From an uncultured Candidatus Saccharibacteria bacterium (GTDB lineage Bacteria > Patescibacteriota > Minisyncoccia > Phycocordibacterales > CSBR16-119), in the NCBI GenBank assembly GCA_964557535.1, contig CAZLAD010000003.1, positions 89,671 to 153,670 on the forward strand: a DNA stretch of 64,000 nt, given 5' to 3'. The notes under the pieces are model-generated. The model made no database searches. It was not told where the DNA came from and worked only from the letters and a program-made list of their open reading frames with translations. The position numbers and the translations under genes were made by a program. This document shows positions 41 through 25,139 of this stretch, piece after piece (within the stretch, counting starts at the first letter, position 1; the number at the start of each line of letters is the position of its first letter).

Positions 41-2290
41 ATGTTGCAAATGTTTCTTTTTGTTAAAAAATGTAAATATATTTTCTTTTTCATAGTTGGT
101 ATTTTTGTATTTTCTAATCTAGTCTTTGCAAGTTCGATAGAAATTGTCAGTGTCTCATCTAACGAAGAATTGGGAAATGACACAAGCCAGCTCTCAGCCG
201 ATTTTAGAAGACCGATTTCTGCCGATGGTAGGTACGTAGCATTTCAGTCTAAGTCTAGTAATTTAGTTCCGTCTGATACTAACAACACCCGAGATATTTT
301 CGTTCGCGATCGGGAACTTAGGACAACGGAACGCGTGAGTGTAGATAGTCTGGGTGTTGAAGGGAATGGTTTCTCCTCGAATCCATCACTTTCTTCAAAT
401 GGCCGATATGTTGTTTTTGAATCGCTTGCTGACAATTTAGTTCCAAATGATACAAATTCCGCGCAAGATATCTTTATCCACGACCGAGAAACAGGTGTCA
501 CAGAGCGAGTGAGTGTAAATAGTGCCGAAGTAGAATCAAATGACAACTCTCTACTCGCATCTGTGTCTGCCGGTGGTCGCTACGTGGCTTTTCAGTCGAG
601 CGCTACAAATTTGGTTTCAGGCGATACCAATAATTCACACGATGTTTTTGTTCGTGACCGGGAACTTGGGACGACAGAACGAATAAGTATAAGTAATCTA
701 GGGATAGAGGGGAATCGTGATTCCATTTACCCAATGATTTCAGACGACGGTCGTTTCGTGGCCTTTCAATCATTTTCTTCAAATTTGATCGCAGGTACGA
801 TTTCGAGTAATATCTTTGTTTACGATAGGGATTTAAATAGTCTCGAGGTCGTTAGTGTTAGTAGCCTTGGTCAGACAGGGAACGACGTCTCCGAGTTCCC
901 GTTTATTTCTGGTAGTGGTCGTTATGTAGCATTTCAATCTTATGCTACAAATTTGGTTTCAGGCGATAACAATAACGATATAGATTTATTTTTTCACGAT
1001 AGACAGACTGGTGTGACAAAAAAAGTAAGCGTGAACCTTGCGGGCGGAAATTCCGAAGGTGTCTCTGGAAATATTAGTATTTCTTCGAATGGTAAATATA
1101 CAACATTTTGGTCTACTGCGGATAGTTTGATTTTAGAAGACAATAACGACGAGTCTGGCCATTTGGGTGTCATGGCGGTTAATTTTTTCTTGCATAATAC
1201 CGAAACAGGTGAGACACAGATAATTTCTAGAGATGCTCGTCATGGCCTACTTTCTTCTGATGGTAATGCGGTTATTTTTGAAGTAGCTGATTTGCAAATT
1301 GAAGGGGATAATAATGGTTTTTATGACATCGCTATTTTGGTGCTTGATCCAGTTTCGACAGATGATCAATCGGGTTCTGGCTCGATTGGTTTTAGTGTTG
1401 CTGGATGTACCAATCCGTTGGCGGTCAATTACAATCCAAATGCGATTGTCGAAAATGAATCATGTATTTTTGATAATAGTTCACCAGATTTTGAAAGTAA
1501 CATTTTTATACCAGGTAAATTTGAAATAGACGATGGGGGGATAGCAGGGGAGGTTAAGGGATTTGTAAACGAGGTTCGTTCAGACGTTTCGGATGTAGTA
1601 GAAAAATTACCAAAGGGATTTATTAGGAACACTTCGTTTCTAGGGCTCGTTTTTCCGGCCTTGGCGTCTTTTGTTTTACCATCACAGAAAATACTTGGAA
1701 CGGTGTTTCATTTTTTAAACCTGCTTTTAATGATGGTGGGATTTCAGAAGAAGAAAAAGTCCTGGGGAGTGGTTTATGATTCAGCAACAAAAAAGCCAAT
1801 CATTTCTGCCAGTGTTTCTCTCCAAAATAACGAAGGTCAAGAGATTTACACCACAAAAACAGATTTCAAGGGACAATTTAATTTTTCTCCAGAACCAGGA
1901 CAGTACCATCTAGTTGTTAGAAAAGACGGTTATCAGTTTCCGTCAAACAAATTAACCGGCGAATATGATGATGGCAAATACGATAACTTATATTTTAGTG
2001 GAGAATTTAATGTTACAAGTAAAGATGAAATGATTTATAAAAATATCCCGCTAGACGCTATTTCATTTGATTGGTCTCAATACATAAAATCAGAAATTCA
2101 AAAAACGACCAGTTTTCAATTTGCAAAAAATGGATTTTGGCAGGATTTTTCGACCGCTATATTTTTTGTTGGAGGTGTTGCGTCCGTCGTCGCATGTATA
2201 GTTTCTCCGTCAGCGCTCAATCTAACAATTACGGGACTTTATCTGACTTTACTTGTTCTTGGGATGGGCATGAAGACCAAGACGCAGTAA
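41..2290 (+). CDS. Large secreted/membrane-anchored protein: N-terminal signal/TM, ~8 tandem ~47-aa beta-propeller blade-like repeats (S.DGRYVAFQS..NLV..DTN...DIFVRDRE.G.TERVSV), one Cys-bracketed GCTNPLAVNYNPNAIVENESC repeat, C-terminal TM-KKKK-CarbopepD_reg-like domain-2xTM anchor
   Basis: Repeat motif read from the translation; C-terminal module is homologous to the C-terminus of ORF 4486..8310. Confidence 0.6.
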   Translation: MLQMFLFVKKCKYIFFFIVGIFVFSNLVFASSIEIVSVSSNEELGNDTSQLSADFRRPISADGRYVAFQSKSSNLVPSDTNNTRDIFVRDRELRTTERVSVDSLGVEGNGFSSNPSLSSNGRYVVFESLADNLVPNDTNSAQDIFIHDRETGVTERVSVNSAEVESNDNSLLASVSAGGRYVAFQSSATNLVSGDTNNSHDVFVRDRELGTTERISISNLGIEGNRDSIYPMISDDGRFVAFQSFSSNLIAGTISSNIFVYDRDLNSLEVVSVSSLGQTGNDVSEFPFISGSGRYVAFQSYATNLVSGDNNNDIDLFFHDRQTGVTKKVSVNLAGGNSEGVSGNISISSNGKYTTFWSTADSLILEDNNDESGHLGVMAVNFFLHNTETGETQIISRDARHGLLSSDGNAVIFEVADLQIEGDNNGFYDIAILVLDPVSTDDQSGSGSIGFSVAGCTNPLAVNYNPNAIVENESCIFDNSSPDFESNIFIPGKFEIDDGGIAGEVKGFVNEVRSDVSDVVEKLPKGFIRNTSFLGLVFPALASFVLPSQKILGTVFHFLNLLLMMVGFQKKKKSWGVVYDSATKKPIISASVSLQNNEGQEIYTTKTDFKGQFNFSPEPGQYHLVVRKDGYQFPSNKLTGEYDDGKYDNLYFSGEFNVTSKDEMIYKNIPLDAISFDWSQYIKSEIQKTTSFQFAKNGFWQDFSTAIFFVGGVASVVACIVSPSALNLTITGLYLTLLVLGMGMKTKTQ

Positions 2291-2299
2291 AGTGAAATC

Positions 2300-2330
2300 A
2301 AAAGGCGCAACCAGAGGTTGCGCCTTTTGA
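2300..2330. terminator. Bidirectional rho-independent terminator between convergent genes (aaaaggcgcaacc aga ggttgcgcctttt)
   Basis: Perfect GC-rich hairpin flanked by A-run and T-run. Confidence 0.6.
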
Positions 2331-2334
2331 TTTT

Positions 2335-4395
2335 TTATCTTTTCGATTCTATTTCAGTACTCGCTACACTTTCTTCTGTTGAATCAGATGTCTTTGGTAT
2401 TTTAGGGAGCGAATCCAAAACTGTTGCAGTTTGTGAGGACTTGGCCTTTTCTACCATTTCTGGCGACTTGGTAATTTCGGAAGTTTTCATTTTTTCCGAT
2501 TCGAGTCGGATTGGTCTCTTGTTCGTATTAACGAGAGCGATCGGCTTTCTTGGTTTTACTACGACATTTGGATTGATCCAGTTTGTAGTAACAGAATTTG
2601 ATAGAGCAGGAGCAGATTCTCCGGCGGAATTTACTGCCACAACAGAAAATGTATAGGTCGTGTTGTTAGAAAGTCCTGCAACGGTGATAGGGCTTGTTGT
2701 TCCGTTAAATACGATATTTCCTGGAATCGAAGTCACTATGTAATTTGTAGCAACAGGGCCACCATTTGGGATGGTAAATGATACGACGGCTGTTCCGCTT
2801 ACACTACCGAGTGTTGCCGTGACAGACGTTGGGGCAGATGGTACAGACAGAGCTTGAACAATTTGTTCATCGAAAGTAAGCGCCCAGTTATGGAGATAGT
2901 TGCCCATGTATGCTGGTACGTTGGAGTCTTGGTAGGTGGCTTCTGTCATATCGCTGTCGCGAAGGTTTCCACGAGCAGAGCCTGGCCACTGAGATCCTGA
3001 CATAGATGCTGGTTCTCCTGTGTAAGCGTATCGAAGTCTTTGGTTGTTTCCCGTTGGCGTTGTATTCAGTGTGATTTTTACCGTATCTCCTGAAATTATT
3101 TCTACGTCAGTAATGGTTGCGGAGTTTGTATCGTCGGCATATTCAAAACCATAGTTTGCCTTTGCCAAGACAGCTGTTGTGTCAAATGCAAGTGGTGGAA
3201 CGGGTACATGGAACCGCGCCAGGATTTCATTCCCAGAAATTGTTATTTCTTCCGGCATGAGAGGCTTCCACTCTTCGCCATCAATGACTACTTTTTTATA
3301 TACTTTTGCATAGTATTCACCGAGTCTTCGAGTACTGTAATTTCGAAGGTGGTAGCCGTCGAAATAGTCGAGCATATATTTTGGTGCAACCATAATTATG
3401 TTGTCTGGGTTATTTTTGGCTGCATTGTATTGTCCTATCGCAATTCTGGGTGTCGCAAAGTTAAAACGTGTCCAAGAACTCATTTGATCTGTAAACATTA
3501 GTACTGACTCACTTTGTCCAGTGATAGCTTGGATGTCGCTTTCGTAGTCTTGTTGCCATTCGACGAGGTATTCCTCATATTGTTCTGCGGTGGTATTCCA
3601 GAGCTCGTCTGTCTCTCCATGGATAACCGTAAACGCTGGCACGACAAGTGTTTTATTGTTTGAAAACAAAGAAATTGATTTTGATGAAGCAATGGTATTG
3701 AGAGCGTTTTCATATGCTGGTGTCCCTTGCTTGATTTCTAAATAGGATGCCGCGTTTTGCGCGTGCATACTAAAAATTGTTGAATAATTAGGACTAAAAT
3801 AAGACGAAATACTGTTGGCCATGGAACTCGACATTGTCTCTGTTCCCGGCATTCCACCGTAAATCGTTTCTTGGAGAGGTGAAAAAGAAGATCCTCCAAC
3901 GGAGAGCATTTTATTGTAATATGGCTGGGTCGTTGTGAGGGCAGGGAAAGAATTGTAACCAGTCGCCAAACTTTGGCCGGTTGAGATGATGTGATTGTTC
4001 GAAGAATTATAGATCCATTCGTGAGAAGGTTCTACCGTGATGATATTTGATGGCGTGCTTGTTTCGCTTCCAGAGATAGTCGAAACCCTAAAATCATACG
4101 ATGTTCCATTGGTGAGATTTGGAATAGTTATTCCAGAAGTGGTTGATTGTTCGTGTGGAAAAATACTCCAAACACTGCCTTGTGTTGGTTTGTATTCAAT
4201 CAGGTAGTTCGTTGCCTGGGGAACATCTATCCATTGCAAAAATACGGCACTGTTTTTTGAATCTCCAACCAAAAGAGACGGTGGTAAAGTGTCCGCTAAA
4301 ACGGGGCTTGTAACAGCAAAAGAAAGGATAATTGCCAGAGTTAAGAATATTTTTTTCATTGCTTTCATCATAACAGATTGAGGACTATTTGTCAA
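2335..4395 (-). CDS. Secreted protein with N- and C-terminal fibronectin-III-like domains flanking an uncharacterised ~400-aa central domain. The true start is probably the internal MKAMKK Met near 4368, which gives a signal peptide
   Basis: Signal peptide MKKIFLTLAIILSFAVTSPVLA; FN3-like segments (..TNGTSYDFRVSTISGSETS.. and ..NNTTYTFSVVAVNSAGES..). Confidence 0.55.
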   Translation of the reverse strand: MTNSPQSVMMKAMKKIFLTLAIILSFAVTSPVLADTLPPSLLVGDSKNSAVFLQWIDVPQATNYLIEYKPTQGSVWSIFPHEQSTTSGITIPNLTNGTSYDFRVSTISGSETSTPSNIITVEPSHEWIYNSSNNHIISTGQSLATGYNSFPALTTTQPYYNKMLSVGGSSFSPLQETIYGGMPGTETMSSSMANSISSYFSPNYSTIFSMHAQNAASYLEIKQGTPAYENALNTIASSKSISLFSNNKTLVVPAFTVIHGETDELWNTTAEQYEEYLVEWQQDYESDIQAITGQSESVLMFTDQMSSWTRFNFATPRIAIGQYNAAKNNPDNIIMVAPKYMLDYFDGYHLRNYSTRRLGEYYAKVYKKVVIDGEEWKPLMPEEITISGNEILARFHVPVPPLAFDTTAVLAKANYGFEYADDTNSATITDVEIISGDTVKITLNTTPTGNNQRLRYAYTGEPASMSGSQWPGSARGNLRDSDMTEATYQDSNVPAYMGNYLHNWALTFDEQIVQALSVPSAPTSVTATLGSVSGTAVVSFTIPNGGPVATNYIVTSIPGNIVFNGTTSPITVAGLSNNTTYTFSVVAVNSAGESAPALSNSVTTNWINPNVVVKPRKPIALVNTNKRPIRLESEKMKTSEITKSPEMVEKAKSSQTATVLDSLPKIPKTSDSTEESVASTEIESKR

Positions 4396-4485
4396 TAGAT
4401 AATAATCCCATTACTACTCTTAATTCTAACACATTTTCTTCGGTATATTCTCTAGTTTCTGTTAAAATATAGAAGATAACTCCGT

Positions 4486-7400
4486 ATGCTTAATTTATCC
4501 CTAAAAAGGACCATATTCGTGAGGCTTTTTGTAATGGCCTTTTTAGTACTATTTGTTTTCTCTCATCACAAAGACGCAATACTCCTGTTGGCAGCATCAC
4601 CAACGGTAACAACTAGTGCAGCTTCCTCTGTTGCTAAAACAACCGCAACATTAAACGGAAGTATTTCCGATAACGGGGGAGAAAATGTCACAGAAGTTGG
4701 GTTTGAGTACGGACTCTCGGCAAGTTATGGTTCATCCACAACGACAACCAGTTCTTATACGTACAATTCTCACTTTGGTTCATCTGGTTCAGGGGACGGA
4801 CAGTTTAGTAGTCCCAATGATATCGAAATCGATTCTTTTGGGAATATTTTTGTAGTTGATAATGTAAACAATCGTATCCAAAAGTTTAATTCATCCGGAG
4901 TGTACGTCTCCCAGTTTGGTTCATCTGGTTCCGGCGACGGACAATTTAATCTAATAGGAGGCTTGGTAATTGATTCTTCTGACAATGTTTATGTTACAGA
5001 TTTTAATAATCACCGCGTTCAAAAGTTTAATTCATCCGGAGTGTACGTATCCCAGTTTGGTTCATCTGGTTCCGGCAACGGACAATTTAATCAACCTTTC
5101 GGGATAGAAATTGATTCTCTTGGAGACATATATGTTGCTGATTTTAATAATGACCGCATCCAAAAGTTTAATTCATCTGGAGTGTACGTCTCCCAGTTTG
5201 GTTCATCTGGTTCCGGCGACGGACAATTTAATTCTCCGACAGATCTTGTTTTTGATTCGTCTGGAAATATCTATGTTACCGACACGGGGAACAATCGCGT
5301 TCAAAAGTTTAATTCATCCGGAGTGTACGTCTCCCAGTTTGGTTCATCTGGTTCCGGCGACGGACAATTTAATTCTCCGACAGATCTTGTTTTTGATTCG
5401 TCTGGAAATATCTATGTTACCGACACGGGGAACAATCGCGTTCAAAAGTTTAATTCATCCGGAGTGTACGTCTCCCAGTTTGGTTCATCTGGTTTAGGTA
5501 ACGGGCAATTTAGTCAACCAACAGGTATAAAACTTGATTCGTCTGGAAATATTTACGTTTCTGAATTAACTGGCGGAAAACGTGTTCAAAAATTTAATTT
5601 ACGAATCGACCCAACTCAAATCACTGGTCTTACGTGTGGGACGACGTATCATTTCCGTGCCTATGCCGAAAATGCAGATGGAACGTCGTACGGAGATGAC
5701 ACAACCTTTACGACATTGACCTGTGAACCACCAGAAGTTGACACGGTCAGTGCGACAAGCGTCTCCCAAACAACAGCCACATTAAATGGCCTCTATGTCG
5801 ACATGCCGGTTGTGCCTGGACTTACTAGGGGTTTTCAGTACGGTCCTACAACTAGTTATGGTCAATCTGTTTCTGAAAATGGCAACGAATATGTCTCCCA
5901 GTTTGGTTCATCTGGTTCCGGTAATGGCCAATTTAATGCGCCCCAAAGTCTAGTTATTGGATCTTCGGGGGCTATATATGTTGCTGACACAGGGAATAAC
6001 CGCGTTCAAAAATTTGATTCGAGTGGAAATTGGATTCTCAATATTACAGGTAACAGTGGGGCATTTAGCTCTCCTTCGAGCGTCTATGTTGATGCTAGTG
6101 AAAATGTCTATGTCTCTGACACGGGGAACAACCGCGTTCAAAAATTTGATTCGAGTGGGAATTTTCTATTAGAAATCGGTACCGGACTTTTTGGAGCAAC
6201 TTTTACTGTGGCGGTAGATGCAAGTGGAAATATCTACGTTGCCGATGTTGATGCCAACAGAATTGCCAAGTTTGATTCTTCCGGAAATTATCCATCTGAT
6301 TTTGCTTCCGGAGAAGTGTCGGTGCCGTATTCGATAGATTTTGATTCTAGTGGTAACGTCTATGTTGCTGACGCTGGTTTTACTTCTATTCGAGTTTTTA
6401 ATTCTGCGGGGACACTTATGACTGATTTGGCTACCGGGCAGTTTGGTTCGATTTTTTATGCGGATGTTGATAGTCATGATCATCTATATGTTGTTGATCA
6501 AGATAACGTCAGGATTTTGAAATACAATACTTCTGGTACACTTCTGTACGAACTTGGAGGAGTAAGCGGTACGGGTAACGGAGAGCTTTCTTTGCCTTAT
6601 GGTGTTACTGCAGATTCCAGTGATAACATCTATGTGGCCGATTCTGGCAATCATCGTATTCAAAAATTTAGTTTAGATTTTTCCCTCCCGATTTCTTCTT
6701 TAGGATGCAGTGACACGTATCACTACCGTGCATTTGCGACCAATGCCGATGGTACTGGATACGGGGAGGATATGATTTTCACCGCAGGTAATTGTCCTCC
6801 AACGGGTGGCGGAGGTGACAACGATGGTTGTACAGATCCAACAGCTGATAATTATGACCCCGATGCTGAGAATGATGATGGTTCGTGTGAATTTTGGGGA
6901 TGTATGGATCGCGATGCAACAAACTTTGATCCAACCGCGAATGTCCCCGTCAATGATTACTGTATCTATACCCCCGGCGCATTTCCCGGTTGTACTGACA
7001 TTCTTGCGACGAATCATGATCCAAACGCAACAGTTGATGATGGATCTTGTCTGTATGGAGTTTTTGGTTGCATGGACACAACGGCAACAAATTATAATTC
7101 AAGCGCAGTGTACAGTGATGGGTCTTGTGAATATGACGGTGGTCCAATTACGACACTCGGTTGTATGGATTCCGGTGCGCTAAACTTTAATCCTTCTGCA
7201 AATGTTGACGATGGGTCTTGTGATTTTCCAGACCCACTCGTATATGGCTGTACAGATGTAAGTGCATCCAATTTCAATCCATCTGCAAATGAAGACAATG
7301 GCTCATGTTCGTATATCAATCCTGATAATCCAGGAATTGGTCAAACTATCTCGCACATTTCTCAATTTATCGGAAATTTACCAGAAGTCGTAACTATTCC

Positions 7401-8310
7401 AATTGTTGCTGTTGGGGTGGTGGCTCCAAGTCTTTTGCTTAATTTCTTGCAACCGGGTCTCATCGCTGGAGCACTCATCCGTCTTTGGAATCTTATCCCA
7501 ATCCTCATGGGTTACAGGCGAAAGAAGCGTCCATGGGGCACCGTGTATGATTCTGTAACCAAGCAACCACTAGACCCTGTTTATGTAAAACTTCTTGATC
7601 AAAACGGACAAGAAAGAGGAACATCTATTACCGATCTTGACGGTCGATACGGATTTCTTGCAGAGGCTGGCACGTATACACTTTCTGCTAACAAAGACAA
7701 TTATATTTTCCCTTCGACAAAACTTTCTGGCAAAAGTGAAGACGAACTGTATCACAATCTGTATTTTGGCGGACCGGTAGAGCTTGCCGAAAAAGAGGGA
7801 GTAATTTACAAAAACATTCCGATGGATGCTATCAATTTCAACTGGAATGAATTTGCAAAAGCAGAAAATAAAAAATTGATGAAGTTTTATTCTAAGCGTG
7901 ATTTGTTTTTTGCCCGTATCGCGAATACTTTATTCATTGCTGGATTTGTTTCTTCGGTAATTCTTTTCCTTACCAATATGTCGACACTCAACAGTATTAT
8001 TTTGGGACTCTATGTTTTGATCCTTGTCTTGAGATTTTTTGGTATCAAGCCAAAACAAAGTGGCTACGCTTTTGATGTTGATGGCACACCACTATCGTTT
8101 GGAATACTCCGACTCTTTTCTGTCGAGCTTGGTAGGGAAGTCGCTCATACTGTAGTCGGTAAAACTGGCCGATACTATATGCTTACTCCAAACGGAGAAT
8201 ACTATCTAAAGGTTAGCAAGAAAACGGGAGAAGACTCATATGAGGAAGTTCTAACTACAGGGGCGTTTCGGGTGAAAGGAGGGTATGTTAATGAAAAAAT
8301 TAGTCTATAA
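4486..8310 (+). CDS. Giant surface protein: signal peptide, >12 NHL-type beta-propeller repeats (NNRVQKFNSSGVYVSQFGSSGSGDGQFNSP), FN3-like domains, seven Cys-bracketed 22-aa repeats (GC[TM]D..A.N[YFH][DN]P.A..DDGSC.[YF]), C-terminal TM-RRKKR-CarbopepD_reg-like-2xTM anchor plus a second CarbopepD-like domain
   Basis: Repeat motifs read directly from the translation; homologous C-terminal module to ORF 41..2290. Confidence 0.65.
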   Translation: MLNLSLKRTIFVRLFVMAFLVLFVFSHHKDAILLLAASPTVTTSAASSVAKTTATLNGSISDNGGENVTEVGFEYGLSASYGSSTTTTSSYTYNSHFGSSGSGDGQFSSPNDIEIDSFGNIFVVDNVNNRIQKFNSSGVYVSQFGSSGSGDGQFNLIGGLVIDSSDNVYVTDFNNHRVQKFNSSGVYVSQFGSSGSGNGQFNQPFGIEIDSLGDIYVADFNNDRIQKFNSSGVYVSQFGSSGSGDGQFNSPTDLVFDSSGNIYVTDTGNNRVQKFNSSGVYVSQFGSSGSGDGQFNSPTDLVFDSSGNIYVTDTGNNRVQKFNSSGVYVSQFGSSGLGNGQFSQPTGIKLDSSGNIYVSELTGGKRVQKFNLRIDPTQITGLTCGTTYHFRAYAENADGTSYGDDTTFTTLTCEPPEVDTVSATSVSQTTATLNGLYVDMPVVPGLTRGFQYGPTTSYGQSVSENGNEYVSQFGSSGSGNGQFNAPQSLVIGSSGAIYVADTGNNRVQKFDSSGNWILNITGNSGAFSSPSSVYVDASENVYVSDTGNNRVQKFDSSGNFLLEIGTGLFGATFTVAVDASGNIYVADVDANRIAKFDSSGNYPSDFASGEVSVPYSIDFDSSGNVYVADAGFTSIRVFNSAGTLMTDLATGQFGSIFYADVDSHDHLYVVDQDNVRILKYNTSGTLLYELGGVSGTGNGELSLPYGVTADSSDNIYVADSGNHRIQKFSLDFSLPISSLGCSDTYHYRAFATNADGTGYGEDMIFTAGNCPPTGGGGDNDGCTDPTADNYDPDAENDDGSCEFWGCMDRDATNFDPTANVPVNDYCIYTPGAFPGCTDILATNHDPNATVDDGSCLYGVFGCMDTTATNYNSSAVYSDGSCEYDGGPITTLGCMDSGALNFNPSANVDDGSCDFPDPLVYGCTDVSASNFNPSANEDNGSCSYINPDNPGIGQTISHISQFIGNLPEVVTIPIVAVGVVAPSLLLNFLQPGLIAGALIRLWNLIPILMGYRRKKRPWGTVYDSVTKQPLDPVYVKLLDQNGQERGTSITDLDGRYGFLAEAGTYTLSANKDNYIFPSTKLSGKSEDELYHNLYFGGPVELAEKEGVIYKNIPMDAINFNWNEFAKAENKKLMKFYSKRDLFFARIANTLFIAGFVSSVILFLTNMSTLNSIILGLYVLILVLRFFGIKPKQSGYAFDVDGTPLSFGILRLFSVELGREVAHTVVGKTGRYYMLTPNGEYYLKVSKKTGEDSYEEVLTTGAFRVKGGYVNEKISL
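4780..5500 (+). repeat. Tandem 141-nt (47-aa NHL unit) nucleotide-level repeats inside the CDS. Two adjacent units (5220-5352 and 5361-5493) are identical
   Basis: Direct comparison of the sequence lines: identical runs with period 141. Confidence 0.75.
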
Positions 8311-8422
8311 GTAGCCCTAGAAATATCTGGGGAAAACCTTGACTTTTGCGTACAGAAATGGTATAAACTAGACCAACGTTCATTGAAACGTTCACAATCA
8401 CAAAAACCCAAAACCCACCATC

Positions 8423-10192
8423 ATGAAGAGTCTTCTTTTCGCCGTTGTTGCGGCATTGTCCACTAGCTGGGCAATGGCTCAGCAGTTCCACTTGGATCCG
8501 GCGATCGGAAGCCATCTATTGGTGGTGAGATCGACGGAAGAAATATCCGGCGGTCATATCATTGTCGTCGGAACCGCAAGTAATCGCGCGGTAATAGCGC
8601 GGACTACTCCTTTGGGAGCGCTCGTCTGGACGAAGAACTGTGATCTGTCTTCCGAGTTCTGGTCGTGTGCCAAAACCACGGACGGCAACATCGTTGCCGT
8701 TGGCGTTCAATACCAAACAGGTGTGATCGCCAAATTCGATACGGACGGAAACGTTGTTTGGACGAAGACGGTTTCAACGCCCGACTCAACCATCACACTG
8801 CGTTCTGTTGTTGTCGTTAATGGCAATATCTACGTTGTTGGTGACAAATGGAAGTCATCACAACGAAGAGAGGTTCTGATCGGCCTCGATCAATCGGGCA
8901 ATATATTTTTGGCGAAGGAGTTGCAAAGCTCTGTAAACCAGATTGGTGCACGAAAAATCTTCCACCACAACAACCACTTGTTTGTGTTGGGGGATGGTCG
9001 GAATGGTTCGATCAAGGCCATGGCCATTGCGAAGTACACCCTTACCGGTGCGCTCGTTGCATACACGACCTTCGGCGGTTTTGGCCCAGATGATTACTTC
9101 CTTGACGCAGCGATGTATCAGGGCGGGACCGTTATGGCCTATCGAAACCTAAACGACATGGACAAGGTTCTGCTTGTAAGAGTAGACGAAAACCTTGGAC
9201 TTGTTGGATCGCCGATGGCTGTAAGCTCAAACTTCGCTGGAGATAACTGGGCCATGACTTCGGCCAGGCTCGGTACTTCTTCTGCTGGAGAACTTTACCT
9301 CTCTGGAGGGATGACCGGAAACAGTTACAACTGTGTTGGCTTGATGAAGATCTCATCAGCCTTCGCTCCGGTCTGGGGACAGAAGAATCTGTTTGGTAAG
9401 TTGCCAGCAGAAACGTCTGTTCTCGAGCTCTCCTCTGGAGATCTGTTGTGGAGCAAAACCCACAACGGAACCATGTTTGGGTCTGTGGCGGGTGCCAGGA
9501 TCTCGACAGTGTCCGCCCTGTCTGGAAGTCAAACAACCAGCTCTTACTGCGAGTCCATGACTCCGTTTGGGTTTGTGCTGTCGCCGGACATGGGTCCGTT
9601 TCCAGTAACTCCTCAAACGAGGATGGCGAACAACCTCAATTTGATTGAGGGGGTGCTCGGGTTTTCAAGCGCTACGCTTGGAGCGAATTCGTGCGGAGGA
9701 CTTCTGCCGGTTGAAATGCTTTCTTTTACAGGACAGCAAATTGACCAGACGGTTGGACTTCGCTGGGCTACAGGAAGCGAGCGTAACAATAGTCACTTCG
9801 ACGTGATGCGTTCGCGTGATGGTCTGGAGTGGAAAGAGATTGGACGAGTTGTCGGCAACGGCAACACCGTGACTCTAAGCGAGTATCAGTTTGTGGACGA
9901 GCATCCTTTCGAGGGTGTGAGTTATTACAAACTTGTCCAAGTGGATTACGACGGACAAACTGACTCGTCAGAGATGGTCGCGGTGGAGTTTACCTCCAAG
10001 CTCGTGGTTTATCCAAACCCACTTAATCGCGGAGAAATTTTGCGAGGCGTGGGGATGGAACCTTTCCAGATTTTCGATGGCGCCGGACGAGTAGTCTGGG
10101 AGGCTGTCGGAGAGACGGAAATAGATTTGCCTTCGGGTGCTTACACCCTGAGGACGAATTCGGGTCTCGCGACCCGAGTCATTGTGAACTAA
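8423..10192 (+). CDS. Secreted protein with a Bacteroidetes-type T9SS (Por) C-terminal sorting domain; lies in a GC-rich island
   Basis: Signal peptide MKSLLFAVVAALSTSWAMAQ; C-terminus VVYPNPLNRGEILRGV..IFDGAGRVVW..IDLPSGAYTLRT..TRVIV matches the Por_Secre_tail pattern (YPNP / DxxGRxV / LxxGxY); G+C visibly higher than flanks. Confidence 0.6.
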   Translation: MKSLLFAVVAALSTSWAMAQQFHLDPAIGSHLLVVRSTEEISGGHIIVVGTASNRAVIARTTPLGALVWTKNCDLSSEFWSCAKTTDGNIVAVGVQYQTGVIAKFDTDGNVVWTKTVSTPDSTITLRSVVVVNGNIYVVGDKWKSSQRREVLIGLDQSGNIFLAKELQSSVNQIGARKIFHHNNHLFVLGDGRNGSIKAMAIAKYTLTGALVAYTTFGGFGPDDYFLDAAMYQGGTVMAYRNLNDMDKVLLVRVDENLGLVGSPMAVSSNFAGDNWAMTSARLGTSSAGELYLSGGMTGNSYNCVGLMKISSAFAPVWGQKNLFGKLPAETSVLELSSGDLLWSKTHNGTMFGSVAGARISTVSALSGSQTTSSYCESMTPFGFVLSPDMGPFPVTPQTRMANNLNLIEGVLGFSSATLGANSCGGLLPVEMLSFTGQQIDQTVGLRWATGSERNNSHFDVMRSRDGLEWKEIGRVVGNGNTVTLSEYQFVDEHPFEGVSYYKLVQVDYDGQTDSSEMVAVEFTSKLVVYPNPLNRGEILRGVGMEPFQIFDGAGRVVWEAVGETEIDLPSGAYTLRTNSGLATRVIVN

Positions 10193-10204
10193 GGTCCCTC
10201 GGGA

Positions 10205-10240
10205 CCGAAATGGGGGCCCGCTTCGGCGGGCCTTTTCATT
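10205..10240 (+). terminator. Two GC-rich hairpins after the T9SS-CTD gene, the second with a UUCG loop (gggcccgc ttcg gcgggcc)
   Basis: Perfect stems. Confidence 0.5.
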
Positions 10241-10264
10241 TGGAATAAATATCAAAAGGGCTTA

Positions 10265-19407: not shown

Positions 19408-19534
19408 TTCTCGTTCCTTGTCCGACTACCGGTTTGAGTAAAATCAAATAGGTGGGAAGGCTTGCTTTTCTTTGGCCTTTTCTTTACTCTTTGACTAGAA
19501 ACGAGAACCACAACAACGAAAACCCAACCTCAAC

Positions 19535-20395
19535 ATGGAAACCTTGACTCGTATTGAAATGCCAGCATTGTCTGGTGAGAAAATGTGGACCATCCTTCAG
19601 GACAAACAATCAAACGTGTTTCGTTGGAAGGATTACGCGGAATGTAATCCAAGGCTATCCAAGCAAAGCAACGCCGAACATGTCCCCTCTGTCGGCAGAC
19701 TCTTTCATGATGTCGTGCCGGCATTGAAGTACCACAACCCGGGCTTGAACGTCGAATTGCTATTGGGAGCTATTCACTACCACGAGGATGGCGAAGCCTT
19801 GATTGGTAGCGATGAGCTGTGGCACAACAAAGGCCAGGAACGGGACTTGCTCGAATACAAGGCCTTTCTCGAATCTATCGCCGACAACGATGTGACGATA
19901 CGGGGGAGGTCAGAGGAGATGTTTCTTCTTCAATTCATCACTGGCCCAACTGACCTACTCGAAGCCTATAACATGGGCACAGCGAATTGGCTCAGACATT
20001 TGCGGAAGAACTTCTCTCTGGAGGGGAAGGTCTTCAATGCCCTTGAGAAGGCCGACTACTACATGTATGCCAAGAAGCGTGGCTACGACGAGTGCGGAGA
20101 CGTGGTCATCTTGGTGCATGTTTTACGAAACCACACAGGTCCTTTGGATGAATACGCCAAGACCATTCCTGGCTTCCGGGAGCATGTGTGGACACAAGCT
20201 CATTCTGAATCGGCCAAGGAGTTCATGGAGCGTTATGCCGGAATTCCGGGGCCCAAGGACCCAGGCGGAATTCCGGCCGCCTATGAGTGGGCTTACGCGA
20301 ACGGTTACATGGAGCGTCCGATCGAAATCGGTGTGGTGGTCGACAAGAGCCCAGCCTTTGGAATCTTTGGAGACGATCCCAGGGGTGGCGCTTGA
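19535..20395 (+). CDS. Hypothetical protein in a GC-rich island; no recognised domain
   Basis: Long ORF; A/C-rich leader aaacccaacctcaacATGG; followed by the hairpin aggacccc gaga ggggtcct. Confidence 0.5.
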   Translation: METLTRIEMPALSGEKMWTILQDKQSNVFRWKDYAECNPRLSKQSNAEHVPSVGRLFHDVVPALKYHNPGLNVELLLGAIHYHEDGEALIGSDELWHNKGQERDLLEYKAFLESIADNDVTIRGRSEEMFLLQFITGPTDLLEAYNMGTANWLRHLRKNFSLEGKVFNALEKADYYMYAKKRGYDECGDVVILVHVLRNHTGPLDEYAKTIPGFREHVWTQAHSESAKEFMERYAGIPGPKDPGGIPAAYEWAYANGYMERPIEIGVVVDKSPAFGIFGDDPRGGA

Positions 20396-20439
20396 AAGGC
20401 ACAAGTAAAATGAGAGGACCCCGAGAGGGGTCCTTTTCA

Positions 20440-20934
20440 TTAATCTTTCTTTCTATATTCCACAAACCAATATTTTATTCCATCACTCGTTTCAAATGGT
20501 CCTTCACGTCTTATTTCTTCGAAAGTATTTTTAAATTCTGGAAAATACGTATCAGCCTCTTTTTGTCCTTCAATTTCTGTCAGATACAGCGTGTCGGCAT
20601 GGGGAAGAGCTTCGGCGAAAACTCGAGCACCGCCAATGACAGCAATTTCTGAATCAATCTTTTTCGCTTCAGAAATTGCCTCATCCAAGTTGTTGCATGT
20701 GAGGACTAGAGGTCCGACCTCTAGTCCGGTTGAAGTAACGACGATATTAGTTCGGCCTGGAAGTGGGCGGAATTTCTCCGGTAGGGATTCCCAGGTTCGT
20801 CGGCCCATGATGACCGGATGGCCCATGGTAAGGTCTTTGAAGCGTTTTAGATCGGCTGGGATTTTAAAAAGTAGGTCGTTTTCAAACCCGAGACCCAAAT
20901 CGTCTTTTTGAATAGATGAAATGATGAAAATCAT
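20440..20934 (-). CDS. folA: Dihydrofolate reductase
   Basis: IAVIGGARVF and GRRTWESLP motifs. Confidence 0.85.
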   Translation of the reverse strand: MIFIISSIQKDDLGLGFENDLLFKIPADLKRFKDLTMGHPVIMGRRTWESLPEKFRPLPGRTNIVVTSTGLEVGPLVLTCNNLDEAISEAKKIDSEIAVIGGARVFAEALPHADTLYLTEIEGQKEADTYFPEFKNTFEEIRREGPFETSDGIKYWFVEYRKKD

Positions 20935-20996
20935 ATAAATACCATCATAATGTCAATTGCGGTTTTTGCCAAAGGGTAGAGTATAATTGGCCTACT

Positions 20997-21674
20997 ATGG
21001 CCGTATCAAAAGAGATTGAAATCAAAAGCCTTTTAGGTGACGAAAATAACGCAAATATTTTTAGAGAAAAGTTATTGGTCAAATATCCAGATGCCAAAGT
21101 TTTGCCAAAAACTTCTCAACTAAATCATTATTTCATTGAAGGTGATTTTGAAGCCCTGAGAAATAAAATTTCTTCTAAATTAAACACCGATCAGATAAAC
21201 GAACTCGCCGAGATTATTGAAAAGGGGAAGACATTTTCTGTCAGAACTCGCGAAACAGATGGCAAGGTCATGCTTGTTTTGAAGGCGTCTTTGGGTGAAG
21301 ACACTTCGCACAACGGAGTTTCTCGTATGGAATTCGAAGAAGTCGTTCCGATGACTTTGAATGAACTCGACGAGCTTTTGCTTTCTTGTGGTTTCAAATA
21401 TCAGGCCAAGTGGTCTCGCGAGCGTGTTGAATACGTTTTACCAAATATGAATGTAACGCTTGATAAAAATGCCGGTTACGGATACTTAACAGAATTTGAA
21501 TCTGTAATTTCTGAAGACGAAGACATTGAACTCACCAAAAAGAAACTTTTAGAAGAAATGAATTCTTTTGGTTTGACAGAACTTCCACAAGCGCGAATCG
21601 AGAGAATGTTTGCTTATTACAACGAGCATTGGCCGGACTATTATGGTACGGACAAGGTTTTTAATATAGAATAA
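20997..21674 (+). CDS. CYTH-domain protein (CyaB / triphosphatase family)
   Basis: N-terminal EIEIK signature (KEIEIKSLL). Confidence 0.55.
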   Translation: MAVSKEIEIKSLLGDENNANIFREKLLVKYPDAKVLPKTSQLNHYFIEGDFEALRNKISSKLNTDQINELAEIIEKGKTFSVRTRETDGKVMLVLKASLGEDTSHNGVSRMEFEEVVPMTLNELDELLLSCGFKYQAKWSRERVEYVLPNMNVTLDKNAGYGYLTEFESVISEDEDIELTKKKLLEEMNSFGLTELPQARIERMFAYYNEHWPDYYGTDKVFNIE

Positions 21675-21679
21675 TTTTT

Positions 21680-22261
21680 ATGTTTTTATCTGACGTTGAT
21701 ATCAAAAAGAAGTTGAAGACTGGTGAAATCGTCATCAAGCCTTTTTCTGAAAAAAAATTACAATTGGCTAGTTATGATGTGACCCTCGACAATGAATTCA
21801 AGGTTGTCGACAGGCATAGCACGATAGTCGTCGATCCGGCCAAGAAAATTTTCCCAAAGACGAAGACGACGATTATCAAAGACGGCGAGGCCTTCGTCCT
21901 GCACCCAGGCGAAACAGTTCTCGGCAAACAGCGAGAATTTATTGGCGTTGATCACAAACATCTAATTCTTTTGTCTGGCAAAAGTTCTTTGGCACGCGTG
22001 GGTATTGCAGTTCACACAACCGCCATGCTTTTCAATCCGGGACATCATTTTTACCCGACTTTCGAGCTCCTAAATACTAGCAATGTTCCCGTAATCTTGC
22101 GTCCTGGAATGGAAATTGCACAGATAATCTTTGCCGAACTCGCAAGCGAATCAGGCAAGACTTACGAGGGAGTTCTCGGCGTCGGTCGTTTTGATAGTCA
22201 AAATTCCGACCATTTCCGAACCAAGAAAAAAGTCGCAAAAAAATCTAAAAATAAAAAATAA
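21680..22261 (+). CDS. dcd: dCTP deaminase
   Basis: dUTPase-fold dCTP deaminase similarity. Confidence 0.75.
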   Translation: MFLSDVDIKKKLKTGEIVIKPFSEKKLQLASYDVTLDNEFKVVDRHSTIVVDPAKKIFPKTKTTIIKDGEAFVLHPGETVLGKQREFIGVDHKHLILLSGKSSLARVGIAVHTTAMLFNPGHHFYPTFELLNTSNVPVILRPGMEIAQIIFAELASESGKTYEGVLGVGRFDSQNSDHFRTKKKVAKKSKNKK

Positions 22262-22262
22262 T

Positions 22263-23252
22263 ATGGAAAAAAGACATCCGGAGTACCAATATCTAGACTT
22301 GCTCAAAGAAATCATGGCCGATGGTTTTGAAAAGCAGGTATTTGGTCACGAAAAATCAGTCAAATCAGTTTTTGGCCGGATGATGAGATATGATTTGTCA
22401 AAAGAGTTTCCGCTCCTGACGACCAAGAAAGTTTTTTGGAAAGGAATCGTCCATGAGCTTCTGTGGTTTCTTCGCGGAGATACGAACATAAAAGATTTGG
22501 CCGATAAGGGTGTCCATATCTGGGATGATTGGCCTTACAAAGATTACAAGGTTGCAATAGATAAGGGCGAAGTACCAAATCTAACACAAGACGAATTTAT
22601 AGAAAAAATCAAAAACGAACCAGCCGATAGTGAATTTGTTAAAAAGTGGGGTGAACTCGGTCCTGTTTATGGGCGTCAGTGGCGTAAATGGCCGGCTGCA
22701 GACGGGAGAATAATTGATCAACTTTATTGGGCAATCGAAAAGACCAAGAAATATCCAGACAGAAAACACGTCGTTGTCTCTGCTTGGAATCCCGAGTATG
22801 TCTATGAAATGGCGCTACCAGGCACCTCGATGGCTATTCCTCCATGTCACACACTTTTTAATATAAATGTTACGAATGGCAGACTTTCTCTCGCGCTTTA
22901 TCAGCGTTCGGCGGACATGTTTTTGGGCGTGCCGTTTAACATTGCTTCTTATTCGCTTTTGACTTTGATTTTGGCCCAAGTCTGCGGATACGAGCCAGGC
23001 GAGTTTGTGCATTTTCTGGGAGACACTCACATATACAGCGATCATTATGATGCCGTGCGCGAGCAATTGGAGCGCGAACCAAAACCTTTTCCAAAAGTTA
23101 AAATAAATCCCGACAAGAAAAACATCGACGATTTTGTTTTTGAAGATTTCGAACTAGTTGACTACGATTCTCATGGAACGATAAAGGCAGATATCACGGC
23201 GGTGGGTGGGTTCGACGAAAAGGATAGAGATAAATTTACAAAGAAGTCTTAA
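22263..23252 (+). CDS. thyA: Thymidylate synthase (ThyA type); start placed at MEKRHPEYQYL
   Basis: YQYLDLL.., LPPCHTLFNINV.., RSADMFLGVPFNIASY. Confidence 0.9.
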   Translation: MEKRHPEYQYLDLLKEIMADGFEKQVFGHEKSVKSVFGRMMRYDLSKEFPLLTTKKVFWKGIVHELLWFLRGDTNIKDLADKGVHIWDDWPYKDYKVAIDKGEVPNLTQDEFIEKIKNEPADSEFVKKWGELGPVYGRQWRKWPAADGRIIDQLYWAIEKTKKYPDRKHVVVSAWNPEYVYEMALPGTSMAIPPCHTLFNINVTNGRLSLALYQRSADMFLGVPFNIASYSLLTLILAQVCGYEPGEFVHFLGDTHIYSDHYDAVREQLEREPKPFPKVKINPDKKNIDDFVFEDFELVDYDSHGTIKADITAVGGFDEKDRDKFTKKS

Positions 23253-23265
23253 TTGACAATTTGTT

Positions 23266-23595
23266 GTGTGCGGGTGTAAGCTCATGAAAACTCCAACCAC
23301 CATGGACACACTGGAAGTAGTTCGTTTGAGAAAACCGGTTGGGGTGCCGATTCAAAAATCTACAGGCAAACCACCCTTTCCACCATTAGACGATGATGAA
23401 CCAGACGACGACGATGATGACAAAGGACGTATCTGGGACGGTCTCAGTGTCATTGTCGTGTTGATTGTTCTTGTTTCGTCTCTCTTGTGGCTGACTCGTC
23501 GTTGGTTGATTTCTGATCACCTCTGGCGCCACAAGGCACAAGAAGTAGCCTCGGCTCGCTTTGGTTATCATCAGCCACTTGGCTCAATGCTCTAG
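23266..23595 (+). CDS. Small membrane protein with an acidic DDDEPDDDDDDK tract and one TM helix; moderately GC-rich
   Basis: ORF followed by a gccccg ttcg cggggc hairpin. Confidence 0.35.
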   Translation: MCGCKLMKTPTTMDTLEVVRLRKPVGVPIQKSTGKPPFPPLDDDEPDDDDDDKGRIWDGLSVIVVLIVLVSSLLWLTRRWLISDHLWRHKAQEVASARFGYHQPLGSML

Positions 23596-23649
23596 GTGAG
23601 ATGCCCCGTTCGCGGGGCTTTCACGTTTATGCTAGAATTGCGCCAGCTC

Positions 23650-23728
23650 TCCCGCGAGTGTAGCGGTCGCTTCCGGGATAATTGCTTATGTCTTTTATTA
23701 TTAAAGACCGCGACATATCACTAACGGG
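23650..23728 (+). promoter_or_regulatory. Partial E-family leader (E5): 3' half only (tagcggt..agaccgcgac..atatcactaacggg), ending at the glyA ATG
   Basis: Matches the 3' halves of E1 and E4; no matching 5' arm found. Confidence 0.35.
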
Positions 23729-25063
23729 ATGAAAAAATCCTACATAGAAAATCAGGACAAAGAAATCTACCGAGCTATCAAAGGCGAAGAGAAGCGCGAG
23801 GCCGAGGGACTCGAGCTTATTCCATCTGAAAATTATGTCTCACAAGCCGTGCTTGAGGCAAACGGTTCGGTGTTTACCAACAAATATTCCGAGGGCTATC
23901 CAAGCAAGCGTTATTATGGCGGTCAAGATTTTACTGATGTTGTCGAAAATTTAGCTATCAAACGGGCGTGTAAACTTTTCAAATGCAAATTTGCCAATGT
24001 CCAACCGCTTTCTGGTGCGCCAGCAAACATGGCCGTGTACGCGGCACTTCTTGAACCAGGCGACACGGTGCTTGGGATGGATCTTTCTCATGGCGGACAT
24101 TTGACCCATGGACATCCGGTAACTTTCCCAGCCAAAGTTTTCAAATTTGTTCGCTATAAAATGAAAAACATCGAGACGGGCGAAATTGATTATGCTGAAC
24201 TGCGCAAAGTTGCTCTTACCGAAAAACCAAAAATAATTCTCGCTGGATTTTCGGCATATCCGCGAAATCTAGACTACAAGAAATTCGTTTCGATTGCGCG
24301 CGAAGTTGGCGCTATCACTGTTGCGGACATGGCGCACATTGCTGGGCTTATTGCAGGAGGCGCCCTCGCGAACCCTTTTGACGCTGGATTTGACGTCATC
24401 ACTACCACGACTCACAAGACTCTACGCGGTCCGCGCGGTGGCATGATTCTCGTTCGTGATAGCGAGGAAATAATTGCGAAAATTAACAAAGCTGTTTTTC
24501 CAGGACTTCAGGGAGGGCCTCATATGAACGTCATCTCGGCCAAAGCCGTGGCATTTGGTGAAGCGCTGAAGCCGTCGTTTAAAAAATATGCCAAGCAAGT
24601 TTTGAAAAATGCCAAGGCGATGGAAAAAGTTTTCAAACGCGAAAAGATCCGCATGATTGGCGGGGGGACTGACAATCATTTGATTCTTGCTGACGTTTTT
24701 GGCTCCCTCGGCGTCACAGGTAAAGAAGCCCAGACCGTGCTCGATGAAGTTGGTATAACTTTGAATATGAATGCAATTGCCGATGATACGCGAAAGCCAC
24801 TCGACCCTTCGGGTATCAGATTCGGAACCCCAGCTATTACAACTCGTGGATTCAAGGAAAAAGATTGTGCACGTGTTGCCGAAATTATGATTGAAGTTTT
24901 ACGCGATTTTGCTTATAAAAAGATAAACCCCCACACCAAGTTTTCACATGCGCAAAAAAAATCTTTGAAGGGTAATCAAAAACTTGGTGTAGGGGTAAAA
25001 GAAAAAGCTAAAAAAGAAATCCAAAAAATGGCCAAAAAATTCCCAATTCCAAAAAAGTTCTAA
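23729..25063 (+). CDS. glyA: Serine hydroxymethyltransferase
   Basis: Conserved SHMT sequence incl. TTTTHKTLRGPRGG. Confidence 0.92.
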   Translation: MKKSYIENQDKEIYRAIKGEEKREAEGLELIPSENYVSQAVLEANGSVFTNKYSEGYPSKRYYGGQDFTDVVENLAIKRACKLFKCKFANVQPLSGAPANMAVYAALLEPGDTVLGMDLSHGGHLTHGHPVTFPAKVFKFVRYKMKNIETGEIDYAELRKVALTEKPKIILAGFSAYPRNLDYKKFVSIAREVGAITVADMAHIAGLIAGGALANPFDAGFDVITTTTHKTLRGPRGGMILVRDSEEIIAKINKAVFPGLQGGPHMNVISAKAVAFGEALKPSFKKYAKQVLKNAKAMEKVFKREKIRMIGGGTDNHLILADVFGSLGVTGKEAQTVLDEVGITLNMNAIADDTRKPLDPSGIRFGTPAITTRGFKEKDCARVAEIMIEVLRDFAYKKINPHTKFSHAQKKSLKGNQKLGVGVKEKAKKEIQKMAKKFPIPKKF

Positions 25064-25139
25064 ACTTTTGACAAAAGTCTAGATAAGAGTAAACTCGTCT
25101 TTGTAACAGTTCACAAAAACCCCTCAAAACTCAACAACC

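Follow-up and report, generated by a model that had tools for sequence, protein, structure and literature searches.

The DNA analysed here is a 64-kb window taken from contig CAZLAD010000003.1, which is at least 224 kb long; "window" denotes this whole stretch, and all positions refer to it. Several short segments, termed islands, are only modestly GC-richer than the window as a whole (49-55% vs. a mean of 43.2%). We concentrate on island 1 (8339-10241), a gene for a 589-aa protein with a predicted signal peptide, a β-propeller, and a C-terminal module that resembles that of Bacteroidota proteins secreted via a type IX secretion system (T9SS), and on the origin of the islands in general.

Based on its sequence, the backbone is assigned to the Patescibacteria (candidate phyla radiation, CPR), class Paceibacteria. 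NusG is up to 82% identical to that of metagenome-assembled genomes (MAGs) labelled Paceibacterota, Zambryski-, Nomura-, and Taylorbacteria, in agreement with an earlier reading made from the letters alone (the sequence-only reading), which had called the backbone CPR-like. The window contains rpsL-rpsG-fusA, nusG-rplK, several aminoacyl-tRNA synthetase genes, recA, ftsK, and genes for large repeat-rich surface proteins. For comparison, we used related Paceibacteria loci, among them L004 (GCA_052033715.1), L005, L006, L007, L064, L088, L090, L092, and L093.

The island-1 gene and its C-terminal module

Island 1 is composed of the following elements:

8339-8367, + strand: sigma-70-type promoter read from the sequence, TTGACT (8339-8344), a 17-nt spacer ending in TGG, and TATAAA (8362-8367)
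8375-8422, + strand: 5′-UTR of about 48 nt (predicted transcription start), A/C-rich, G-poor, without Shine-Dalgarno (SD) motif
8423-10192, + strand: coding sequence, 589 aa, 51.6% GC, GC content at third codon positions (GC3) 0.56, GC3-excess z-score 7.8
8423-8482, + strand: predicted Sec-type signal peptide MKSLLFAVVAALSTSWAMA, followed by QQ after the putative cleavage site; no lipobox cysteine; judged by inspection of the translation
8519-9457, + strand: β-propeller, residues ~33-345, from PQQ_2 and SBBP/delta-60 matches, model strands, and Foldseek
9704-9997, + strand: first β-sandwich, residues 428-525, FnIII/Ig-like, beginning at LPVEMLSF, no Pfam model
10001-10189, + strand: β-sandwich similar to the T9SS type A C-terminal domain (CTD), residues 527-589, with VYPNP and GAY motifs
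10193-10241, + strand: two tandem GC hairpins, GGTCCC-TC-GGGACC and GGCCCGC-TTCG-GCGGGCC, the latter followed by TTTTCATTT

The last 20 nt of the leader comprise 19 A or C and no G. At the other end of the unit, the second hairpin together with the T-run TTTTCATTT looks like an intrinsic terminator, and the same tandem arrangement is found in L005. In the AlphaFold2 model of the protein, residues 2-13, i.e. the signal-peptide region, form a helix, and the strands of the propeller span residues 33-345. The library matches of the propeller are weak (PQQ_2, 7.7e-7; SBBP and delta-60 repeat models), and Foldseek matched it to the propellers of CylK, NHL, and BACCAC_01654. Residues 323-428 were modelled with low confidence.

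The sequence-only reading had identified the tail as a Por C-terminal sorting domain of the T9SS. An end-to-end match at the C-terminus does exist: TIGR04183 aligns with residues 529-586 over model positions 1-69 of 72 (E = 4.9e-4). However, its score of 20.0 bits lies below the curated cut-off of 23, and that of PF18962, 15.4 bits, lies below the cut-off of 27, so that neither hidden Markov model (HMM) assigns the tail to the T9SS type A CTDs at its curated cut-off. The VYPNP and SGAY motifs can be read from the translation of the tail. Over about 160 aa, the C-terminal module is 36-40% identical to Bacteroidota T9SS cargo, i.e. to proteins carrying PF18962; the values are 36% over 185 aligned columns for an Arachidicoccus T9SS protein and 39% over 137 columns for a protein annotated with PF18962. 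The top non-CPR match of the module is encoded on a diderm-type contig of 59% GC, where OEP (outer-membrane efflux) and Por_Secre_tail are neighbours.

AlphaFold2 folded residues 428-589 into two β-sandwiches with a pLDDT of 93.8. Foldseek matches of this model included the IgSF and CTD of RgpB (5ag8_A, E = 1.9e-5) and PorU (6za2, E = 2.2e-5) among generic Ig/FnIII tandems with similar scores. Judged from the model, the terminal domain has an Ig-like β-sandwich fold as in type A CTDs. A sequence search of the PDB with the C-terminal module yielded no meaningful match.

The tail had also been regarded as useless without a T9SS. This view is not borne out, as no other part of the protein is conserved as well as the module, which also occurs in paralogues. 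The identity of the module between groups of alleles is 52-56%, in contrast to 24-29% for the propeller between window-type and L004/L006-type alleles, and CGGLLPVEMLSF is invariant among the orthologues. The same module ends GC-rich paralogues with unrelated N-terminal parts in L004 (376 aa) and L005 (362 aa), and a further GC-rich paralogue of 338 aa in L004 ends in the CTD alone, with PF18962 on record. A conserved handle combined with variable passengers is a pattern typical of sorting or anchoring modules. A tblastn search with the island-1 module detected it in loci of the window's clade only and in none of the ~70 other Paceibacteria loci compared. Among the window proteins scanned, which did not include every open reading frame (ORF), none matched the SprA/Sov, PorV, PorU, or GldKLMN families, and literature searches for T9SS tails in Patescibacteria or Parcubacteria gave nothing specific.

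The L004 orthologue of island 1 (603 aa, 31-32% identity) is located at the same site before rpsL, and elongation factor G encoded there is 96% identical to that of the window. Its GC content is 52.5%, compared with 45% for the L004 backbone, and it has an A/C-rich leader. The L005 allele is 97% identical to that of the window, and the L006 and L007 alleles are about 35% identical. A/C-rich, G-poor leaders precede the orthologues in L004, L005, and L006. The block containing promoter and leader (8328-8402) is 84% identical upstream of the L004 orthologue and nearly identical in L005 and L006. A metagenome scan with an alignment of the island-1 orthologues found nothing.

The region upstream of rpsL encodes variable surface proteins with PD40, fn3, and NHL repeats (window 41-8310, L004 1-9905, L005 1-4686). 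In L004 and L005, two genes without counterpart in the window separate the NHL gene from island 1; the PD40 gene and the gene for the 362-376-aa paralogue with the CTD module, both carried by these loci, are missing from the window. The identities of island 1 and of the neighbouring NHL gene do not run in parallel:

window and L005: island 1 97%, NHL neighbour 64%
window and L006: island 1 35%, NHL neighbour 79%
L004 and L006: island 1 65%, NHL neighbour 64%

These incongruent identities, the differences in gene content, and the patchy divergence of the island-9 gene (see below) indicate that alleles or parts of genes have been exchanged within the clade. Positive selection between the 97% alleles of the window and L005 is not evident, as 18 codons differ synonymously and 15 non-synonymously.

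An element resembling a miniature inverted-repeat transposable element (MITE; CCCCACACCAATATT...AATATAGGTGTGGGGG) is located at 10255-10415, outside the gene, between the island-1 terminator and rpsL. It adjoins island 1 without bracketing it and is missing in L004. A second MITE-like copy lies at 29160-29300, 3′ of argS, and the terminal inverted repeats of the pair are CCCCACACCAATATT...AATATTGGTGTGGG.

Composition, leaders, and gene content of the islands

In 500-nt bins, 49-53% GC is reached at 8501-10000, 19001-20500, 25501-26000, 33001-33500, 52501-53000, and 61001-61500. For the individual genes, the GC3 excess was computed as a z-score, with amino-acid usage controlled for. The 11 island ORFs have the following positions and values:

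8423-10192, + strand: island 1; GC 0.516, z 7.8
19034-19348, + strand: island 2 (19034-20395), 104-aa ORF without assigned function; GC 0.552, z 3.7
19535-20395, + strand: island 2, 286-aa HD-domain protein; GC 0.521, z 7.6
23284: z 0.4
25140-26087, + strand: island 4, purine-nucleoside phosphorylase (PNP), PNP_UDP_1 2.3e-27 and NF006054 6e-38, the latter below its cut-off; GC 0.519, z 5.2; preceded by the promoter TTGACA-16-TAAACT at 25068-25095 (+ strand) and an A/C-rich leader
33078-33503, − strand: island 5, 141-aa EamA-like membrane protein (EamA 7.4e-7) between ileS and recO; GC 0.514, GC3 0.61, z 4.8
44729-45151, + strand: island 6a, 140-aa ORF with two CxxC pairs and no family match; GC 0.487, z 3.3
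45321-45974: GC 0.431, z 2.4
49002-49316: GC 0.451, z 1.3
52505-53038: z 2.4
60778-61464, − strand: island 9, 228-aa secreted protein with signal peptide, PF26696 PTL_trimer domain, and small Cys-rich C-terminal domain resembling C-type lectins/FGE; GC 0.530, z 3.8

The GC-rich islands reported earlier are therefore real in that 7 of the 11 ORFs have a clear GC3 excess, but the elevation is moderate, it is weak in the other four, and the backbone genes are heterogeneous as well (standard deviation of z 2.45, maximum 6.5).

A codon dialect that goes beyond a shift in GC is found in all seven strong island genes, and it is common to the window islands and their orthologues elsewhere. In comparison to the backbone, they prefer AAG for Lys (62% vs. 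29%), GAG for Glu (54% vs. 26%), TAC for Tyr (73% vs. 38%), and AGG plus CGG for Arg (~44% vs. ~10%), and they use CGC for Arg less often (9% vs. 24%). The ORF at 45321-45974, next to that at 44729-45151, has the dialect without the rise in GC. The proposal that the islands stem from one donor class stands to the extent that one dialect extends across them, which fits a common origin or a common regime.

At least 16 of the 20 nt upstream of the start codon are A or C in eight genes (8423, 19535, 25140, 44729, 45321, 49002, 57346, and 60778), seven of which are on the island list of the sequence-only reading. The A/C-rich, G-poor leaders that it described are thus confirmed, but they are not exclusive to the islands: G-poor A/C/T leaders also precede backbone genes of the ribosomal-protein type (rpsG, rplK, rpsF, and ssb). 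The GC-stem terminators with UUCG or GNRA loops are likewise present; they are not island-specific because backbone genes carry such hairpins, too (3′ of fusA, of 58777-60660, and of recA). Both observations weaken leaders and terminators as hallmarks of a donor. On the Bacteroidota-like contig of 59% GC with the nearest non-CPR homologue of the island-1 module, some genes have A/C-rich leaders, so that a donor origin of such leaders keeps some probability, and a similar bias towards AAG, TAC, and AGG plus CGG is found.

One outlier rule was applied to ~70 Paceibacteria loci. The window yielded 7 outliers among 51 genes, L004 3 among 19, and L093 2 among 17, in contrast to 0 or 1 gene in most other loci. 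Many outliers of other lineages have GGAG-type leaders. The class with A/C-rich leaders characterises the window's clade.

In most backbone genes, a TGnTATAAT motif ends 6-8 nt upstream of the start codon (e.g. 20977-20996, 33569-33588, 36096-36115, and 52485-52504), and these genes are probably leaderless. No SD motif was visible in any upstream region inspected in the window. Together, the two observations suggest that this lineage initiates translation mainly in a leaderless or SD-independent manner.

The PNP of island 4 has its own small clade with identities of 75%, 73%, 52%, and 51%, followed by a drop to 32%. The L093 orthologue (72-73% identity) also follows the SHMT gene and has 49.8% GC, compared with 38% for the L093 backbone. 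At four-fold degenerate sites, the window and L093 share the third base in 24-33% of cases, which is the random level, i.e. the synonymous sites are saturated. Nevertheless, the GC content at these sites (GC4) is 0.47 and 0.49 for the two PNP genes (window and L093, respectively), in contrast to 0.14-0.34 for the L093 backbone. Residual donor composition from a recent transfer does not account for a GC4 kept in this way.

The HD-domain and PNP genes (19535-26087) are embedded among genes for DHFR, a CYTH protein, dCTP deaminase, thymidylate synthase (thyA), and SHMT, which indicates that these accessory genes extend a nucleotide-salvage and thymidylate module. The 286-aa protein belongs to a family of ~229 representative clusters, members of which match the HD_3, HD, and YfbR-like models (HD_3 in 9 of 32 members), and the family profile matches the HD proteins 2cqz and 1xx7 in the PDB. 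The HD family includes YfbR-like 5′-deoxynucleotidases. No relatives of the 286-aa protein were found in scans of JGI metagenomes or IMG/VR, and none of a 217-aa protein in IMG/VR; the remaining small island ORFs had no family match. In L004, the same promoter is followed by a shorter island 2, and neither island 2 nor island 5 is present at its site in L093. In the same nucleotide cluster, the thymidylate synthase (22299-23252) is 51% identical to that of the close relative L004 and 73% identical to that of the more distant L064, and these values suggest a gene replacement.

The island-9 protein is the second product that had been called Bacteroidetes-type, on account of a GLLIPR..LLVYNT..GYYYW domain. 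This proved to be the Pfam domain PF26696 PTL_trimer, the named matches of which are from Bacteroidota; the call stems from precomputed Pfam data for an identical protein (P0043) and all listed homologues, and a local Pfam scan gave no match. Database proteins match the N-terminal domain with 55-75% identity over 40-48% of the query, and the named ones among them are from Bacteroidota. Orthologues with 72%, 50%, and 38% identity, found in L088, L090, and L092, lie between the same PG_binding_1 and Wzy_C neighbours; elevated GC, an A/C leader, and conservation of a GAGATAAT box are common to all of them. The genes of the window and L088 diverge in 60750-61036 only, i.e. at the lectin-like end, where the DNA is 30-60% identical; the flanks are 97-100% identical. 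Such a low identity indicates replacement rather than point mutagenesis. A diversity-generating retroelement was considered for the variable end and rejected, as no repeat pairs with 60750-61036 and the divergence is too deep; a search of the window for reverse transcriptase was not made.

No tRNA, Rfam family, integrase or phage signal, or direct repeats flanking the islands were detected in the window. PHROG matches of the island proteins were confined to β-propeller repeats, and PADLOC returned none for them. An origin from a mobile element or prophage is therefore unsupported.

Several further features of the window were recorded. Among backbone genes, that at 46155-48893, just downstream of the ORFs at 44729-45974, stands out by the largest GC3 excess (z 6.5). 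The 912-aa protein encoded there has weak TraG-D_C, TrwB, and HerA matches, i.e. it resembles coupling-protein ATPases of type IV secretion systems, and a PADLOC mad8 match. Between argS and ileS (~29310-29510, − strand), a GC-rich ORF of ~64 aa (MMVRRKIRQ...) with its own hairpin was found that was not on the earlier list, and the same site in L093 (13921-14292, − strand) contains a GC-rich 123-aa gene with an A/C leader. An upstream block of ~105 nt (GTCGTGAATTACTYAC ... TTTGCTATCNCTAACGG, followed by ATG; copies at 46053-46157, 50373-50479, and 50921-51028) is common to three genes, which encode a TraG/VirD4-like ATPase, a DUF2238 protein, and a β-CASP RNase; the block is probably made up of a shared regulator site and a leaderless promoter.

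A structured element of ~115-135 nt follows both rplK and rpsR (window 18827-18961 and ~42701-42815; L004 17045-17185). A long stem closes the element (28 bp perfect at 18827/18934), and its conserved core is made up of GACGCGCGTTC, a hairpin with a TGTAAAC loop, and CCGCTAAGACTCGGAAG... Its hairpin stems covary between copies, the predicted fold has −63.9 kcal/mol (z = −9.6), and Rfam gave no match. Possibly, it is a small RNA or structured repeat that has not been described so far. A third long hairpin (57132-57266, between ftsK and a DeoR-like gene) has arms of 30 nt with 93% complementarity and a GC-rich core of 75 nt, which differs from that of the element behind rplK and rpsR.

Origin and age of the islands

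We favour the interpretation, with a probability of roughly 60%, that the islands are anciently acquired, domesticated accessory genes, and that island 1 encodes a variable surface protein with a repurposed T9SS-like tail. The core genes of this Paceibacteria genome are AT-richer and, for the most part, probably leaderless, and short, mostly single-gene accessory units are interspersed between them, each with a canonical promoter, a short A/C-rich 5′-UTR without SD motif, a GC-richer coding sequence in the island dialect, and a hairpin terminator. These units would have resided in the clade for a long time, and at least two include domains for which an old capture from Bacteroidota is probable, a phylum reported to be among the more frequent non-CPR donors to Patescibacteria (PMC12455944).

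The island-1 protein would be exported via Sec and would be located at the surface or extracellularly, with the variable β-propeller as the likely ligand- or host-binding part. The C-terminal pair of sandwiches is homologous to the Bacteroidota module with a T9SS type A sorting domain at its end, and forms a handle common to several paralogues. Because Patescibacteria, including Paceibacteria, are not known to possess an outer membrane or a T9SS, we infer that the handle was repurposed, e.g. so that the protein attaches to the envelope of its own cell or to a partner. The region before rpsL would be a variable surface-protein locus, the alleles of which are exchanged by recombination within the genus, and gene exchange within the CPR probably contributes to the islands.

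Several points weigh against the interpretation as ancient, domesticated acquisitions. The CTD match lies below both curated cut-offs, and β-sandwich folds match many unrelated tandems. Islands 2 and 5, which are variable among relatives, could be of younger age. Some of the listed islands resemble ordinary native genes: the gene at 52505-53038 looks native, as it has a leaderless TATAAT promoter, is conserved in relatives, and shows a GC rise mainly at first codon positions, and those at 23266, 45321, and 49002 are weak. Lastly, a distinct composition that survives synonymous saturation is not explained by simple ancient transfer and amelioration.

The alternative that survives best, although we consider it unlikely, partly overlaps with the favoured interpretation. 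It regards the islands as a flexible set of genes passed around among related Paceibacteria through homologous recombination at fixed positions between operons, with a composition that reflects this shared pool and not the resident genome. The incongruence of the island-1 alleles with the NHL neighbour, the restriction of the PTL_trimer divergence from L088 to one segment between nearly identical flanks, the two genes before island 1 that are missing from the window, and the PNP gene with ~50% GC within the L093 backbone of 38% are all in its favour. In addition, most transfers into Patescibacteria were reported to come from other Patescibacteria (PMC12455944). Against it, the 72% identity of the PNP between window and L093 is similar to the values of the core genes next to it (46-83%), and vertical descent would lead one to expect this. 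Moreover, the NHL neighbour of island 1 recombines and is equally mosaic, yet AT-rich (GC3 0.33), so that recombination alone leaves the GC rise unexplained; the same observation weakens GC-biased gene conversion as its cause.

The sequence-only reading had proposed repeated recent acquisition from a Bacteroidota donor, possibly a host, with leaders and terminators of the donor type still attached. The common composition and dialect of the islands, the Bacteroidota-type modules in two products, the A/C-rich leaders and codon bias on the GC-rich Bacteroidota-like contig, and the differences of islands 2 and 5 between relatives speak for it. Seven ORFs indeed have the atypical composition of genomic islands (z 3.3-7.8), but islands 1, 4, and 9 are not absent from relatives. 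Syntenic orthologues with 31-73% identity keep the same features in related species: those of island 1 are 31-35% identical at the same site before rpsL, those of PTL_trimer 72%, 50%, and 38% identical between the same neighbours, and the PNP orthologue after the SHMT gene 72-73%, with saturated synonymous sites between window and L093. A close donor was not found, as Bacteroidota proteins match about 25% of island 1 with at most 40% identity, and the identity of the PNP falls to 32% beyond its own clade; the 55-75% matches of the PTL_trimer domain cover 40-48% of the query, and this domain is strongly conserved in general. The promoters are of the canonical TTGACx-17-TATAAx type and conserved within the CPR clade, so that the leaders and terminators of the islands are not simply relics of a donor, and no integrase, tRNA, or phage signal was detected. 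Of the claim that two products are Bacteroidetes-derived, what persists is that two island modules have their non-CPR relatives in Bacteroidota, not that they are recent imports. For islands 1, 4, and 9, recent transfer is largely refuted, and for the set of islands as a whole we judge it improbable.

The assumption of no foreign origin at all, i.e. of native genes in which GC and rare codons follow from amino-acid content, low expression, or gene-specific selection, has little likelihood, too. It would account for the native promoter and the first-position GC rise of 52505-53038, for the variation among backbone genes (z up to 6.5), for G-poor leaders before ribosomal-protein genes, and for the persistence of the features across species. 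It does not account for the Bacteroidota affinity of the non-CPR relatives of the island-1 module and the PTL_trimer domain, for the confinement of that module to the window's clade in the tblastn search (0 of ~70 other Paceibacteria loci), or for a GC rise that extends into untranslated leaders and terminators.

A more speculative scenario, which we would regard as a long shot, is that the genus lives on a Bacteroidota partner. Its exported T9SS-tagged proteins would be bound or even covalently coupled by the T9SS attachment machinery exposed on the surface of the partner (PorV, PorU, and PorZ), so that the sorting system of the host would become the docking point of the epibiont, and the GC-richer dialect genes with A/C leaders would form a host-interaction class kept apart from the leaderless core.

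A chimeric metagenome assembly, the alternative named by the sequence-only reading, in which Bacteroidota fragments were joined into a CPR contig, has the compositional contrast as its sole support and is ruled out for practical purposes because the island junctions recur in independent Logan assemblies of different sequencing runs: an identical 589-aa protein, flanked upstream by the NHL-repeat gene and downstream by rpsL, is encoded on contigs from three runs (SRR12487045, DRR685535, and DRR685533), island 2 through DHFR, thyA, SHMT, and PNP is on two further independent contigs, and other MAGs and metagenomes contain loci of identical architecture.

Relation to known systems and implications

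The island-1 protein is built like T9SS type A cargo of Bacteroidota, e.g. RgpB of P. gingivalis: an N-terminal signal peptide precedes a variable passenger and an Ig/FnIII-like domain, and the ~65-aa sandwich at the end carries Pro-Asn-Pro and GxY motifs. Its predicted fold matches the IgSF and CTD of RgpB as well as PorU. In contrast to such cargo, it is encoded by a member of the Paceibacteria, a CPR genus has retained its module as a shared handle, and the HMM scores are below the cut-offs. The island-9 protein shares the N-terminal domain (55-75% identity) with the Bacteroidota PTL_trimer proteins, which are tail-fibre-like and often contain Collar (PF07484), Peptidase_S74 (PF13884), or collagen repeats. 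It differs from them by the fusion to a Cys-rich lectin/FGE-like domain and by the fixed site between PG_binding_1 and Wzy_C.

With the horizontally acquired genes and small islands described for Patescibacteria (PMC12455944), the units of the window have atypical composition, accessory content, and Bacteroidota affinity in common. Unlike those islands, they are single genes at conserved sites with clade-conserved promoters and without mobility genes or tRNA targets, and their composition persists in orthologues after synonymous saturation. Island 1 also resembles variable surface-protein or receptor-binding loci in which the ends are conserved and the middle is hypervariable, as its promoter, signal peptide, and C-terminal handle have been conserved while its binding domain has diverged, and the allele trees are incongruent with the flanks. 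Unlike at such loci, no cassette archive or retroelement was seen, and no repeat pair matches the variable regions.

If the favoured interpretation is true, proteins based on a secretion-tail module of Bacteroidota have been retained, multiplied, and diversified in a CPR lineage, even though the secretion system that reads this tail is presumably missing there. This would be a case of domain repurposing, possibly involving a Bacteroidota partner, in organisms whose hosts are mostly unknown. In addition, two classes of genes can be distinguished in the window, as leaderless, AT-richer core genes are contrasted with leadered, GC-richer accessory genes that have their own codon dialect. A distinction between gene classes that outlasts synonymous saturation is not predicted by standard models of acquisition followed by amelioration. 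For the annotation of CPR genomes, compositional islands should thus be taken neither as recent transfers nor as misassemblies.

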